Shown here one piece after another: positions 21,354-26,888 of a stretch of DNA of 26,888 nt (within the stretch, counting starts at the first letter, position 1; every line of letters begins with the position of its first letter). The position numbers were made by a program, and so were the translations under genes. Where the stretch lies: the NCBI GenBank assembly GCA_036273835.1, contig DASUGV010000407.1:1-26888 (forward strand). Reading direction: 5' to 3'. The DNA comes from Rhodocyclaceae bacterium. Lineage in GTDB: Bacteria > Pseudomonadota > Gammaproteobacteria > Burkholderiales > Rhodocyclaceae. A model generated the notes under the pieces. That model saw nothing but the letters and a program-made list of their open reading frames with translations. It searched no databases and was not told where the DNA came from.

Positions 21354-21956
21354 TTATTTACCCAAGCTCGAATATTTCAACAGGCGATCCAGGTCTTTCA
21401 TCATCGCCTTGGGATCGGGCGTGGCAGAAAAACGCATCATCAGATTGCCCAGCGGGTCGACCAGATGAATGCGTGCAGGCTCGAGTTGCCGGGCCAGTTT
21501 TTCATCGCTGAGCACGACTAGTCCTTCCTGGTTGCTCATGACATTCGCATTGGGTGTGCCGCCATCCGTCACAACCCAGGCGCGTGCGACGCGATCCATC
21601 TGATCGGACTGCGCGATGCGCACTTGCCGCATGTAGTAGAGCGCTCGTTTGCAAACGTTGTCGCAGCTCGCTGGCGCGGCCAGCACCATCACCCATTTGC
21701 CGAGCAAGGCCGGCTGGTGTGCGGGCCACGTGATGGGTTGCGGCGGCTGGATCAGCTCGCCATGATTATCGTGCCCGCTTGGACGCCAAAAATAAAACGC
21801 CAGATAGGACGCAACGATGGGCGACAAGCAGATAAAGAAAATGAGCAAGAACGTTCGACGCGACTTTGTCCGCAATGCGAGCATTTCGGGTGATGCATTT
21901 GTCATGTTCGTGCGATTCTCCGAATCCACTTGATTCATACTCAAATCGGCAGCCAT
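21354..21956 (-). CDS. Conserved SCO/thioredoxin-like membrane-anchored protein of cox clusters
   Basis: N-terminal TM, GKWVMV, CDNVC (CxxxC), LVDPLGNLMMRF, KDLDRLLK; ATG directly follows the SURF1 stop (TAA-ATG). Confidence 0.75.
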   Translation of the reverse strand: MAADLSMNQVDSENRTNMTNASPEMLALRTKSRRTFLLIFFICLSPIVASYLAFYFWRPSGHDNHGELIQPPQPITWPAHQPALLGKWVMVLAAPASCDNVCKRALYYMRQVRIAQSDQMDRVARAWVVTDGGTPNANVMSNQEGLVVLSDEKLARQLEPARIHLVDPLGNLMMRFSATPDPKAMMKDLDRLLKYSSLGK

Positions 21957-22673
21957 TTATCGAACATCCTTCTTTACCTCGTGCGCGTGAAGAAAATTCG
22001 CACGCACATTCTTCCAGCCGAACCACAGCACCAGCACTGCGGACAAGGCGGCAAACGAGAACCACTGGAGCGCATAACCGCGATGCATGTCGACGCCGAA
22101 GTCCGGTCGCGGCCAATCGCGCACCAGGCCGTCGTTGGCTGCGTTTTCCTGCAACACCATCAATGGTGCAACGGGCTTGCCAATCTGCGTAGCCATCCGC
22201 GCAAGATCGACACGCTGCCATACATGCGGTTCGGCCGACTCTCCCAACGAGAAGCCGCGGGTCACCGGCGCTTCCGCCAACCCTTTCACTATCACCTCGC
22301 CGGTAGGCGCAGGCGCAGTGGGCAAATGACTTCGATCTCCGCTGCCCGCTATCCAGCCACGATTGATTAGGACGAATCCTGCATCGCCAGCCAGCCGCAG
22401 CGGCGTGAGCACATCAAAACCCACGCGCTCGCGATAGACGCGGTTATCGAGCAACACGGTCTGCGATGCCAACCACTGACCTCGCAAAGCCACGCGATGC
22501 CCTTCGCGCAGATCAGCCGCTTCACGTGCCGCGATCACGTCGCTTGGCGCATCGAAGCGCGCCTGCAGCGCGATCTTGTACTCGGCCCGGCGCAGTTGCC
22601 AAAAACCGAGATTTACGCACAGCACACACATCAAGATGCCGGCGACGTAGGGAAGCAATGTGCGGACTTGCAA
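21957..22673 (-). CDS. SURF1 family cytochrome oxidase biogenesis protein
   Basis: LGFWQLRRAEYK, LDNRV, GFDVLTPL, LINRGW, HRGYALQWF; TTG start uncertain. Confidence 0.9.
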   Translation of the reverse strand: MQVRTLLPYVAGILMCVLCVNLGFWQLRRAEYKIALQARFDAPSDVIAAREAADLREGHRVALRGQWLASQTVLLDNRVYRERVGFDVLTPLRLAGDAGFVLINRGWIAGSGDRSHLPTAPAPTGEVIVKGLAEAPVTRGFSLGESAEPHVWQRVDLARMATQIGKPVAPLMVLQENAANDGLVRDWPRPDFGVDMHRGYALQWFSFAALSAVLVLWFGWKNVRANFLHAHEVKKDVR

Positions 22674-22770
22674 GAGAAAAATGAACCGAAAAAGACAACG
22701 CGGGGAAAGAAGAGAGAAATGTTCTAAACTTTAAACTGGATCGCCCACTACTACATTGCTGGACCACCCT

Positions 22771-22971
22771 ATGCGCTACGTCATTCTTGTCTTGCTCGTC
22801 GTCATCCTCATCAGCCTGGGATCGGGCTTATTCTATCTCGTAAAGGACAAAGGCAGTACCGACCGCACCGCGCGTGCGCTGACCTGGCGCATCGGCTTGT
22901 CGTTGCTGCTATTCATACTTATCGCTCTGTCATATCGCATGGGCTGGGTATCGGGCCATCTTCTAAGCTGA
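22771..22971 (+). CDS. Twin-transmembrane small protein (DUF2909-like), antisense within cox cluster
   Basis: SLGSGLFYLVKDKG...ALTWRIGLSLLLF; position between SURF1 and coxC. Confidence 0.85.
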   Translation: MRYVILVLLVVILISLGSGLFYLVKDKGSTDRTARALTWRIGLSLLLFILIALSYRMGWVSGHLLS

Positions 22972-22992
22972 GTGATGTAACCTGAACGCCCA

Positions 22993-23023
22993 ACCCAATT
23001 GGGTCATTTCAATTGGGTCATTT
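22993..23023. repeat. Tandem 14-bp duplication forming a palindrome/hairpin between convergent genes
   Basis: CAATTGGGTCATTT x2 (22996-23009, 23010-23023); hairpin ACCCAATTG-N8-CAATTGGGT. Confidence 0.7.
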
Positions 23024-24041
23024 ACAAAACGTAAACAAGCACGAACAACAGCAGCCAGACGTAGTCGACAAAGTGCCAATACCAGGCTGCGGCTTCGAAA
23101 GCGAAATGGCGCTCTTGCGTGAAATGACCGCGCAACGAGCGCACCAGCATTACTGTCAGCATGATGGCGCCGATGGTCACGTGCAAGCCGTGAAAGCCGG
23201 TCATCATGAAGAAGGTCGAACCGTAAACGCCGGAAGTCAGCTTCATGCCTGCGGCATAAGCATGTATGTACTCATAAGACTGGCAGCCGAGAAAGGTTAT
23301 GCCAAGCAGAATGGTCAAGGCCAAGAACAGGTTGAACTGCCCGCGCATGCCGCGCCGGATGGCCCAATGCGCCCATGTGAGCGTGGCAGCGGACGAAAGC
23401 AGCAATGCGGTATTCACCGCAGGCAACCACTTGATGCTCATCGAACCAAGGAACAAGATAACCAATACGATGGTCAGCGACAACACCAATTGGAGCTGAC
23501 CGCGTTGTCCCTTCTCCAAGGGATGATGCGCATACACGAGCGTCGCGGCTGCGCAAATCATCAAGGTCAGACCGAGCGCAGACTGACCGACCCACCCCAT
23601 TGCTTCGAATGGATCTTTGAGAAAAGGTCCCGAGGTTGGCCACGCCGCTTTGAAACCGGGCCACAGCAATTGTTGCAGACTACTGCCTAAATCGGGCACC
23701 GAGATATTGCGCACATAAAACAGCACGCCGAAGAAGGCGGCAAAGAACATCACCTCGGAAAAGATGAACCAACCCATGCTCCAGCGGAAAGCCTTATCCA
23801 CTTGCTTGCCGTATTGGCCGGTCTCGGACTCGCGAATCACTGTGCCAAACCAACCGAACAGCATGTACAGGAGTACGGCGAAACTGAGCGCAAACACCAT
23901 CGGACCAGGCTTGAAATGATTAACCCATAGCGCGGCGCCACTGCCCATCAAGAGCAAGGCAACCGAACCGAAAATCGGATATTTCGACGGCGACGGAACG
24001 AAGTATTTTTCGAATGTAGTACTACTGACACCTTGGCTCAT
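23022..24041 (-). CDS. coxC: Cytochrome c oxidase subunit III with internal two-helix duplication
   Basis: YFVPSPS, WFIFSEVMFFAAFF, NTALLLSS, FLGCQSYEY, YGSTFFMMTGFHGLHV, AAWYWHFVD; 339 aa from ATG 24041. Confidence 0.93.
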   Translation of the reverse strand: MSQGVSSTTFEKYFVPSPSKYPIFGSVALLLMGSGAALWVNHFKPGPMVFALSFAVLLYMLFGWFGTVIRESETGQYGKQVDKAFRWSMGWFIFSEVMFFAAFFGVLFYVRNISVPDLGSSLQQLLWPGFKAAWPTSGPFLKDPFEAMGWVGQSALGLTLMICAAATLVYAHHPLEKGQRGQLQLVLSLTIVLVILFLGSMSIKWLPAVNTALLLSSAATLTWAHWAIRRGMRGQFNLFLALTILLGITFLGCQSYEYIHAYAAGMKLTSGVYGSTFFMMTGFHGLHVTIGAIMLTVMLVRSLRGHFTQERHFAFEAAAWYWHFVDYVWLLLFVLVYVL

Positions 24042-24105
24042 ACGGGCCTTCTCCTGAGTTTCTTTGCGAATTTCTCTTTCAGCATTCAATTTGATAGCGC
24101 AAATA

Positions 24106-24336
24106 CTACATGTTGGCTATCAGCAGCTTCACGACCATGATGACCGTGAGCAACAGCAACGCCGCACACATCACGCCCACCACGATGACCTGCAGTGGCT
24201 TGAGTTGCACCGCGTCGCGGTGGTAATCCTTGCGCTTGCGAATACCGATAAAAGCCGACAAGACGGCAATAACCGTCGCAACAAAAGACGAGCGTGGCGC
24301 AGTTTCGCCGGGCTGCTCATCACGCCCTTCCATCAA
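24106..24336 (-). CDS. DUF2970-like small membrane protein
   Basis: AVLSAFIGIRKRKDYHRD...LKPLQVIVVG; usual position between ctaG and coxC. Confidence 0.8.
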   Translation of the reverse strand: MMEGRDEQPGETAPRSSFVATVIAVLSAFIGIRKRKDYHRDAVQLKPLQVIVVGVMCAALLLLTVIMVVKLLIANM

Positions 24337-24905
24337 GAACGTCCTTTATCCGGCACCGTCGTACCCGCCACTTCAAAGAACGTATATGACAACGTAATCG
24401 TACTGATATCCTTGGATACGTCACGATCGACCAGAAATACCACTGGCATAACCCGTTTTTCTTTGGCCTGCAAAGTCTGTTTGGTGAAACAGAAACATTC
24501 AAGCTTTTTGAAGTACCGTGCCGCGGCCATCGGACCATAGCTCGGAATCGCCTGGCCCGTCACTGGGCGATCCAGCGTGTTCTCCACTTCGTAATCGATA
24601 CGCGTCAACTGACCCGGATGCACACTGATGCTGTTTTGCAACGGCCTGAAACGCCACGGCAGATTGCGCGTATTGGCATCGAACTCAATCGTCAGCGAGC
24701 GCGCCAAATCGATCTGTGTGTTCTTGACTAATTCGTCCGGGCGCAACAAATCATTTATGCCAGCAACATTACAAATGGTTTTGTAGAACGGCACCAGCGC
24801 GAAACCAAAACCGAACATGGCCGTGGCCGCGATGACCAGACGCACCATCAGTCGCCGGTTATTGAGTGCAAGACCCGCTGTTCGGGTAGCCAATGGAACG
24901 CTCAC
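24333..24905 (-). CDS. ctaG: Cytochrome c oxidase assembly copper chaperone (Cox11/CtaG)
   Basis: MFGFGFALVPFY..IC, GQAIPSY, YFKKLECFCF, MPVVF, ITLSYTFF. Confidence 0.94.
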   Translation of the reverse strand: MSVPLATRTAGLALNNRRLMVRLVIAATAMFGFGFALVPFYKTICNVAGINDLLRPDELVKNTQIDLARSLTIEFDANTRNLPWRFRPLQNSISVHPGQLTRIDYEVENTLDRPVTGQAIPSYGPMAAARYFKKLECFCFTKQTLQAKEKRVMPVVFLVDRDVSKDISTITLSYTFFEVAGTTVPDKGRS

Positions 24906-25044: not shown

Positions 25045-26664
25045 TCAGTGTTGATGTTCTGCCGGATGGAAAACCGGCGGTACTTCGAAACTGTGATACG
25101 GCGGCGGCGACGACAACGTCCATTCCAGACCAGTGCCACCTTCCCACGGCTTGGCAGGCGCTTTCTCTCCGCCACGTATGCATTTGATGACAATGTAAAG
25201 AAAGAATAACTGACTCAATCCGAAACCAAATGCGCCGATGGTGGCGATCTGGTTAAAGTCGGTGAAGATGGGATTGTAGTCCGGCACGCGACGTGGCATG
25301 CCAGCCAATCCCAGAAAGTGCATGGGGAAGAACGTGACATTGAAGGTAATCATCGAGGCCCAGAAATGGCGCTTGCCGAGTTTCTCGTCATACATGTGGC
25401 CGGTCCACTTCGGCAACCAATAGTAAGTCCCGGCAAACAGTGCGAACAGCGAGCCCGCCACCAGCACGTAGTGGAAGTGCGCGACAACGAAATACGTATC
25501 CTGATATTGGATGTCGGCCGGTGCAATGGCACACATCAAACCAGTGAAGCCGCCCATGGTGAACACGAAGATGAAACCGACGGCAAACAGCATGGGCGAT
25601 TCGAATGTCATCGACCCGCGCCACATGGTGGCAATCCAATTGAACACTTTCACGCCGGTCGGCACGGCGATCAGCATCGTGAGGAACATGAAAGTAATTT
25701 GAGCTTGCGCGGGCATACCTGTCGTAAACATATGGTGAGCCCACACCATGAAAGACAGGATGGCGATGGAACACGTTGCGTACACCATCGAGGCATAGCC
25801 GAACAAAGGTTTGCGCGCGAAGGTCGGGATGATTTCGGAGACGATGCCGAAAGCCGGCAAGATCATGATGTACACCTCGGGATGCCCGAAGAACCAGAAC
25901 ACGTGCTGATACAGAACTGGATCACCGCCGCCCGCGGCGTTAAAGAAACTGGTGCCGAAATGGCGATCGGTCAATACCATGGTCACCGCACCGGCAAGTA
26001 CGGGCATGACCGCGATCAGCAGATAGGCAGTGATCAGCCAGGTCCAGCAGAACAATGGCATACGCATCAGCGTCATATTCGGCGTGCGCATGTTGAGAAT
26101 GGTCACGATGATGTTGATCGCCCCCATGATGGAGCTGGCACCCATGATATGCAGAGCGAAGATCGCCATGTCCATGCCCATGCCCATTTGCACCGATAGC
26201 GGCGCATACAAGGTCCAGCCTGCGGCGGTCGCGCCACCGGGCACGAAGAAAGAGCCGATCAACAGCAGCGCCGCTGGCGGCAGCAACCAGAACGACCAGT
26301 TGTTCATGCGCGCGAAAGCCATGTCGGGCGCGCCGATCATCATGGGCACCATCCAGTTCGCAAAGCCCACGAAGGCCGGCATGATCGCGCCGAACACCAT
26401 GATCAGGCCATGCATGGTCGTGAGTTGATTGAAGAATTCCGGATGCACGAGCTGCAAGCCGGGTTTGAACAGTTCCGCGCGAATCGTCAACGCCAACGAA
26501 CCTCCGGAGAGGAACATGATGAAACTGAAAAACAGGTACATCGTGCCGATATCTTTGTGATTCGTCGCGCCGATCCAACGTATCAAACCGGTTGGCTTGT
26601 GGTCGTGCGAGTGGTCGCTGGAATGATCGTGGCCGTGAACGATGTCAGTGGAAGCGATGCTCAT
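25045..26664 (-). CDS. coxA: Cytochrome c oxidase subunit I, type A1
   Basis: TNHKDIGTMY, TMHG, APDMAF (D-channel Asp), FFGHPEVY, WAHHMF, PTGVKVFNW (K-channel Lys), AHFHY, GMPRR. Confidence 0.98.
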   Translation of the reverse strand: MSIASTDIVHGHDHSSDHSHDHKPTGLIRWIGATNHKDIGTMYLFFSFIMFLSGGSLALTIRAELFKPGLQLVHPEFFNQLTTMHGLIMVFGAIMPAFVGFANWMVPMMIGAPDMAFARMNNWSFWLLPPAALLLIGSFFVPGGATAAGWTLYAPLSVQMGMGMDMAIFALHIMGASSIMGAINIIVTILNMRTPNMTLMRMPLFCWTWLITAYLLIAVMPVLAGAVTMVLTDRHFGTSFFNAAGGGDPVLYQHVFWFFGHPEVYIMILPAFGIVSEIIPTFARKPLFGYASMVYATCSIAILSFMVWAHHMFTTGMPAQAQITFMFLTMLIAVPTGVKVFNWIATMWRGSMTFESPMLFAVGFIFVFTMGGFTGLMCAIAPADIQYQDTYFVVAHFHYVLVAGSLFALFAGTYYWLPKWTGHMYDEKLGKRHFWASMITFNVTFFPMHFLGLAGMPRRVPDYNPIFTDFNQIATIGAFGFGLSQLFFLYIVIKCIRGGEKAPAKPWEGGTGLEWTLSSPPPYHSFEVPPVFHPAEHQH

Positions 26665-26707: not shown

Positions 26708-26888
26708 TCAGCTCGCCGGTTTATTTGAAGCGGATACGGGCTCGGATGCGGGAGCTTCCGATGCGACCGGCGTTGCCGCAGCGGTAGCCTTTTGTTTCTG
26801 CTCCGCTACCCATGCGTCATATTTATCCTGCGGCAACACATGCACCACGATGGGCATGAATCCATGATCCTTGCCGCATAGCTCGGCG
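26708..26888 (-). CDS. coxB: Cytochrome c oxidase subunit II, 3' end only (partial)
   Basis: Own translation from 26887: AELCGKDHGFMPIVVHV...SNKPAS*; end of the CuA motif (C)xExCGxxHxxM; directly upstream of coxA. Confidence 0.92.
   Translation of the reverse strand, partial: AELCGKDHGFMPIVVHVLPQDKYDAWVAEQKQKATAAATPVASEAPASEPVSASNKPAS

Follow-up and report, generated by a model that had tools for sequence, protein, structure and literature searches.

The coxC gene of a Rhodocyclaceae bacterium, encoding subunit III of an aa3-type cytochrome c oxidase, carries an internal tandem duplication of the segment for helices IV and V, and its predicted nine-helix product is a real, old, clade-restricted, and selectively retained variant of a well-known subunit; the variant appears to be so far undescribed. 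The gene lies on contig DASUGV010000407.1 (assembly GCA_036273835.1), the whole 26,888-nt stretch of which was analysed and is referred to below as the window. Subunit III is among the most conserved membrane proteins of aerobic respiration, and normally has seven transmembrane helices in a 2+5 arrangement with a lipid-filled cleft. We consider it likely that the duplication took place in the ancestor of the clade, that the downstream copy (copy 2) has remained canonical, and that the upstream one (copy 1) has been retained as a peripheral structural extension.

The gene order in this part of the window is coxB (3' end), coxA, ctaG, DUF2970, coxC, DUF2909, SURF1, a 200-aa ORF, ctaA, and ctaB, and the operon is of the usual betaproteobacterial aa3 type. 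Its features, and those of coxC itself, are as follows:

26708–26887, minus strand: 3' end of coxB (subunit II), an open-ended ORF cut by the end of the window, which we take to be the end of the CuA-site motif of subunit II
25045–26664, minus strand: coxA, subunit I, 539 aa (Pfam COX1, E 3.4e-167)
24333–24905, minus strand: ctaG/cox11 copper chaperone (Pfam CtaG_Cox11, E 2.2e-50)
24106–24336, minus strand: small membrane protein DUF2970, directly upstream of coxC (Pfam, E 7e-17)
23022–24041, minus strand, stop codon included: coxC, long form of subunit III (P0002), 339 aa (Pfam COX3)
23688–23981, minus strand: predicted helices I, II, and III of coxC, residues 21–40, 45–73, and 79–118 (AlphaFold2)
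23424–23582, minus strand: copy 1, predicted extra helices IV' and V', residues 154–206 (BLASTP, Pfam, AlphaFold2)
23265–23423, minus strand: copy 2, canonical helices IV and V, residues 207–259 (invariant columns, AlphaFold2)
23028–23231, minus strand: predicted helices VI and VII, residues 271–303 and 313–338 (AlphaFold2)
22756–22971, plus strand: twin-helix small protein DUF2909 (Pfam, E 1.4e-23)
21957–22673, minus strand: SURF1 assembly factor (Pfam, E 6.9e-41)

Two features of this operon lie outside coxC. The 200-aa ORF between SURF1 and ctaA (21354–21956, minus strand) had no Pfam match at E ≤ 0.001. The N-terminus of coxA (26590–26664, minus strand) encodes a His/Asp-rich tail with an HGHDH..DHSHDH-like run, which recurs in varied form in nearly all of the 25 related subunit I genes examined (L034–L058) and could be metal-binding or proton-collecting.

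The coxC gene is located in a minus-strand ORF at 23022–24089, and its likely start is the ATG at 24041, the position at which homologues of 333–336 aa also begin. The whole protein matched Pfam PF00510 (COX3) with an E-value of 3.4e-60 and a score of 204.5 bits (cut-off 23.8), in two stretches that flank an insert. The first-pass annotation, made from the sequence alone, had described two consecutive 53-aa units with a 159-nt period at 23265–23582, and both the units and the RGQ codons that mark them (23496–23504 in copy 1 and 23337–23345 in copy 2) were confirmed at these coordinates. The period is exactly 159 nt, and the units abut in frame and in register, with no linker. Comparison of copy 1 with copy 2 by BLASTP gave 23 of 52 identities and 35 of 52 positives without gaps (E 3e-14); of the 23/49 identities originally counted by hand, the 23 thus stands, while the denominator should be 52–53. 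None of 200,000 composition-preserving shuffles reached 23 ungapped identities, the maximum being 16, and all other 53-aa segments of the protein gave at most nine. At the DNA level, the copies are about 52% identical (82 of 159 columns invariant). Set against short homologues, the inserted block corresponds to residues 153–205 (nt 23427–23585), the boundary of the tandem repeat (154–206 for copy 1) being arbitrary by one residue.

Copy 1 alone matched positions 132–178 of the COX3 profile (E 1.9e-4) with 21.8 bits, slightly below the 23.8-bit cut-off, and the sequence from copy 2 onward matched positions 126–255. Since the two copies overlap on the profile, they have the same region of the family as their source; judging from bovine and bacterial structures, we take this region to be helices IV and V. 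The repeated unit is therefore the helix IV–V region and not the N-terminal helix pair of subunit III. With single-unit homologues branching outside the two-unit clade, coxC is confirmed to carry an internal tandem duplication, that is, a gene elongation.

Carriers of the long form are betaproteobacteria from soil and freshwater that make up a small group, comprising Uliginosibacterium, Viridibacterium, and uncultured relatives. In a collection of 5.8 billion proteins, the best 11 matches, which include Viridibacterium curvum, Uliginosibacterium sp. H3, and several metagenome bins, are 333–336 aa long, contain the insert, and are 71–75% identical to the protein of the window over its full length; the next-best matches, of 281–283 aa, align without exactly the 53-residue block. 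The two-copy segment, used as a query against 401 genomes sampled from the window's family, gave a bimodal outcome: nine genomes matched both copies (query residues 1–113, E ≤ 1e-47) and about 240 matched copy 2 only (E 1e-13 to 1e-22). The nine carriers are the window's own genome, whose genus has no further member in the genome collection, six of the seven genomes of genus g89, the seventh being without any match, and two of genus g15. Each carrier genome gave one match, and the long form is therefore its sole aa3-type subunit III.

When 1.84 billion cluster representatives were searched exhaustively by HMMER with the two-copy query, both copies were present in two clusters, one full length and one a fragment, among the 150 matches listed. 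Of three other matches with multiple stretches, two proved to be ordinary proteins with a single copy and the third an unrelated protein with repeats; the rest of the matches listed were single-copy. Independent duplications elsewhere were considered and rejected, as the both-copy clusters among these 150 listed matches came from this clade only. No curated NCBIfam model corresponds to the long form; matches to these models were limited to sub-threshold ones to five-helix families over residues 207–339.

In genus g15, the long form is present in only two of the ten sampled genomes (G179 and G409; loci L019 and L018), while in most of the others the two-copy subunit III query matched nothing; such a patchy distribution could reflect horizontal movement of the whole operon. 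The subunit III of locus L018 is identical to a protein (P0007) from a bin labelled 'Moraxellaceae bacterium' at NCBI. The genome collection places the L018 genome in the window's betaproteobacterial family, and the NCBI label is probably wrong.

The source genome is a fragmented metagenome bin of 534 contigs with 84% completeness, which invites the suspicion of faulty assembly or of a gene in decay. However, two copies with so little DNA identity cannot collapse, expand, or mis-assemble onto each other, and the judgement already made in the first-pass annotation, that their divergence makes an artefact unlikely, was borne out by a 1011-nt soil-metagenome contig from an independent study, which spans 22900–23630, including both copies, with 0 differences. 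An assembly artefact was rejected on these two grounds. Moreover, the same insert is present in isolate genomes, all frames are intact, and carriers have no other aa3-type subunit III, so that we give virtually no credence to an artefactual or decaying coxC. The probable source sequencing run also contains the entire stretch.

Two further patterns were seen in the metagenomic data. Contigs from soil metagenomes pile up at 23164–23251 and 23736–23779 to 20–35 times the local depth, because these segments encode the most conserved motifs of subunit III and draw 40-nt contigs from many other organisms. A short contig of run X1 contains a 510-nt 'joint', the sides of which are about 33–41 nt long with a likeness of 90–95%, and which skips 510 nt rather than 159; it was read as a chimera of conserved motifs of other organisms and discarded as a candidate. 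None of the RNA sequencing runs searched contained the coxC sequence.

To place the insertion on a phylogeny, a maximum-likelihood tree of 61 subunit III sequences was used in which the 53 insert columns were masked. The 20 long sequences (16 of them unique), originating from three genera of the genome collection and from metagenomes, lie on one side of a branch with an ultrafast bootstrap of 96. Their sister is a group of four short-form rows (joint clade 100/99), the joint clade is nested among short forms, and the protein of the window is the earliest-branching long form. Since the long forms occupy one side of a branch and are nested within the short ones, the tree indicates a single gain of the 53-aa insert, the SH-aLRT value for long-form monophyly being only 64. 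The mapping of homologues with the same insertion, which had been proposed along with the original observation, thus gave a single clade on a tree blind to the insert.

The exact, in-register, and linker-free arrangement of the units favours self-duplication over import from another gene. The competing possibility is that the insert was acquired by recombination with the helix IV–V segment of a different subunit III gene. Mean identities would leave room for such an event, since copy 1 is about 33% identical both to its own copy 2 and to the single copies of other family members, and is further from those of the sister group (27%). Nevertheless, an imported segment would have had to abut the resident one exactly, in frame and in register, without any linker. 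On a tree of the 53-aa units, all copy 1 sequences group together (100/100), and the very long stem of this group attaches beside copy 2 of the long clade itself, albeit with weak support (55/69). Within one protein, the two copies share 13–23 of 53 residues, and they are most alike in the earliest-branching long form, that of the window (23/53, versus 13–20 elsewhere). As for a donor, the genome has a second subunit III (locus L063), which was rejected as not credible because it is of a distant five-helix type. Taken together, we regard recombination as highly improbable.

This second subunit III belongs to another haem-copper oxidase in the same bin (L063:974–1627, contig C312 of genome G000, minus strand). 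It consists of 217 aa, matches Pfam COX3 with an E-value of 1.7e-15, and follows immediately downstream of a subunit I fragment that is truncated where the contig ends.

By this account, a 159-nt segment of coxC coding for helices IV and V underwent an in-frame tandem duplication in an ancestor shared by the members of a small Rhodocyclales clade, namely the organism of the window, Uliginosibacterium/Viridibacterium, and one further genus of the genome collection. The downstream copy, with all canonical residues kept, would do the normal job of helices IV and V. The upstream copy probably diverged quickly, losing NT, S, and Q..EY and growing more hydrophobic than its template, and would then have stabilised.

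The structure predicted for the long form comprises nine helices rather than the seven, in a 2+5 arrangement, of the proteobacterial and mitochondrial form. A Kyte–Doolittle profile has eight peaks above the threshold, corresponding to helices I, II, III, IV', V', V, VI, and VII, with canonical helix IV slightly below it. AlphaFold2 modelling with a 75-row alignment (mean pLDDT 80.8, pTM 0.77) yielded nine helices; between the three N-terminal and the two C-terminal ones given in the list above lie helices at residues 152–177, 180–200, 206–229, and 233–263. The extra pair (152–177 and 180–200) was modelled with a pLDDT of 78–96, and the preceding loop (134–150) with values below 50. The mean hydropathy across all long forms is 1.2–1.9 for IV' and 2.1–2.7 for V', as against 0.8–1.2 for canonical helix IV. 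The turn between IV' and V' carries one to three Lys/Arg residues in all long forms, and the outer connector none or one, a charge pattern that fits the inside-outside orientation of the template. Since a whole hairpin was inserted, the topology of every other helix would be unchanged in the nine-helix product. The suggestion in the first-pass annotation of a variant with roughly nine transmembrane helices and preserved topology is thus supported by hydropathy, by AlphaFold2, and by the charges in the cytoplasmic turn of the extra hairpin, the predicted order along the chain being 2+7.

The two copies have had different fates. Copy 2 keeps all residues that are invariant across the 75-sequence alignment (P, NT, S, T, H, Q, T, G, F, and Q..EY), while in copy 1 the outer-side motifs (N-T, the serine, and Q..E-Y) are lost and the helices are still hydrophobic; alignment and hydropathy therefore agree with the initial reading of a canonical second copy and a first copy that is diverged, hydrophobic, and in frame. 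Among the nine carrier genes, mean amino-acid identity rises from copy 1 (0.65) through the N-terminal part (0.75) and copy 2 (0.84) to helices VI–VII (0.87), which makes the last the most conserved part of the protein and copy 1 the least constrained. Nevertheless, the pN of copy 1 (0.23) is far below its saturated pS (0.57), and copy 1 is therefore under purifying selection. The extra hairpin together with its first glycine (residues 152–205) contains 12 positions that are invariant across the 16 distinct long sequences, namely G152, L156, A171, H172, P174, G178, Q182, L183, L187, L196, L198, and W205, and the cytoplasmic turn of copy 1 has the invariant pattern A-H-x-P...G...Q-L. Conservation along copy 1 showed no significant helical-face periodicity (p 0.54 and 0.10) and does not point to a defined buried face of this copy. 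That the duplication is old, diverged, and retained, as first supposed, accords with the occurrence of 20 long sequences in one clade, the 65% mean identity of copy 1, and the saturation of pS.

In order to locate the hairpin relative to the catalytic subunit, subunit I from the window, with a 26-row alignment, was folded together with subunit III. The pair gave an ipSAE of 0.92 in three of three runs, compared with 0.00 for the best of three controls; the mark applied is attained by 58 of 80 complexes of known structure and by 2 of 110 mismatched pairs, counts that hold only roughly for custom alignments, and the pass itself may reflect memory of solved homologous complexes. The modelled interface of subunit III comprises residues 10–41, 64, 80–118, 136–141, and 268–279, so that the usual interface is kept, with the canonical contact to subunit I via helices I and III intact in the model. 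No modelled interface residue falls within 150–260, and neither copy touches subunit I in the model, where residues not named in the interface count as uncertain.

From this list of interface residues, we infer that the extra hairpin would be a neighbour of helix IV and lie where the bundle faces away from subunit I. An outer, lipid-exposed site beside helix IV is the more likely one because the hairpin has a link of only five residues to helix IV and a higher hydrophobicity, and the term 'peripheral' is used here in this sense. The hairpin would then be a membrane-embedded, lipid-facing structural extension, an 'outrigger', rather than a catalytic or proton-path element.

Alternatively, the hairpin could have acquired a specific new job, either as a docking surface for another complex or subunit, such as a bc1 supercomplex, a membrane cytochrome c, or a lineage-specific small protein, or as a plug of the lipid cleft that alters oxygen delivery or protects from suicide inactivation. 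The retention of copy 1 across three genera under purifying selection speaks for such a role, and the invariant A, H, P, G, Q, and L of its cytoplasmic turn could point to a specific function that goes beyond a structural extension; a hairpin making no contact with subunit I in the model would, moreover, be free for other contacts. Against this, the hydrophobicity of the extra helices exceeds that of canonical helix IV, which would be expected if they are exposed to lipid, the short-form sister has a subunit I with 87% identity over residues 2–537, and the immediate operon flanks carry the same genes in long and short forms. No partner came to light.

Indeed, in the comparison of the immediate flanks of long forms with those of the short-form sister, no neighbourhood gene co-varied with the insert. 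According to tblastn, DUF2970 adjoins all eight of the long-form genes checked and most, though not all, short-form ones, including those of the sister group, and DUF2909 likewise adjoins both forms. Replacement of a neighbouring small subunit by the hairpin, one of the functions originally suggested, consequently finds no support, since both small proteins flank long and short forms alike. It seems doubtful, on balance, that the hairpin is a lineage-specific module that recruits a supercomplex neighbour or an unrecognised small subunit, or reshapes the oxygen-guiding lipid cleft. If it were, the aa3 oxidase of this clade would differ from the canonical one in its assembly state, oxygen kinetics, or resistance to turnover inactivation.

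With the peripheral structural extension as the favoured reading, the long form offers a clean, datable case in which a membrane protein has grown through the tandem duplication of a hairpin in its interior, with one copy frozen in the ancestral role and the other released. The short-form sisters are available for comparison. The clade also provides a natural experiment on the changes that subunit III can tolerate or use on its outer face, and the variant occurs in two or more cultured organisms, namely Viridibacterium curvum and Uliginosibacterium sp. H3. In annotation based on profiles, the domain is split in two and the long proteins pass as an ordinary subunit 3, which leaves the variant invisible in databases. 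As it stands, the finding has no bearing on a major open question.

The first-pass annotation knew of no description of such a variant, and we found none in open-access full text or in structure databases. No nine-helix subunit III is present in the PDB or among the AlphaFold DB cluster and ESM Atlas representatives; in the latter two, the best TM-score by query was 0.67, and no representative covers the whole model. The section on COX3 architecture in PMC4013037 deals with five-helix, seven-helix, and fused forms only.

The canonical seven-helix subunit III is represented by chain C of the structures from Paracoccus (1QLE), Rhodobacter sphaeroides (1M56), and the bovine enzyme (1V54). The protein of the window shares with these chains the Pfam family, the invariant residues, the operon type, and the modelled contact via helices I and III. 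It has the glutamate of the helix III motif FSEVMFF, as well as GFHG.HV and WYWHFVD, all invariant in the 75-sequence alignment, and the family-invariant residues of helices IV and V (NT, S, and H; Q..EY) are found in copy 2 only. Foldseek comparison with the seven-helix PDB chains gave TM-scores of 0.75–0.82 by target at about 33% identity, and of 0.60–0.64 by query, the lower values being due to about 53 residues without a counterpart. The difference consists of two extra helices between III and IV, nine in the predicted structure versus seven in the canonical one.

The closest comparison is offered by the short-form sister Rhodocyclaceae (P0014 and P0015; 281–282 aa), which are 74–78% identical outside the insert and have the same flanking genes. 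Their sequence reads ...MGWFG|LP.INT... at the junction, where that of the window reads ...MGWVG-[53 aa]-LPAVNT....

Variation in the number of helices is itself familiar from the five-helix forms (E. coli CyoC, Bacillus QoxC/CtaE, and actinobacterial CtaE) and from the I–III fusions of Thermus caa3 oxidase. These forms match residues 207–339 of the window protein, the five-helix ones aligning to this C-terminal part only. To our knowledge, wherever the number of helices in subunit III is known to vary, it is the N-terminal pair that is affected, being lost, split off, or fused. Whereas the five-helix and fused forms thus lose or relocate helices I and II, the protein of the window adds an internal IV–V pair.
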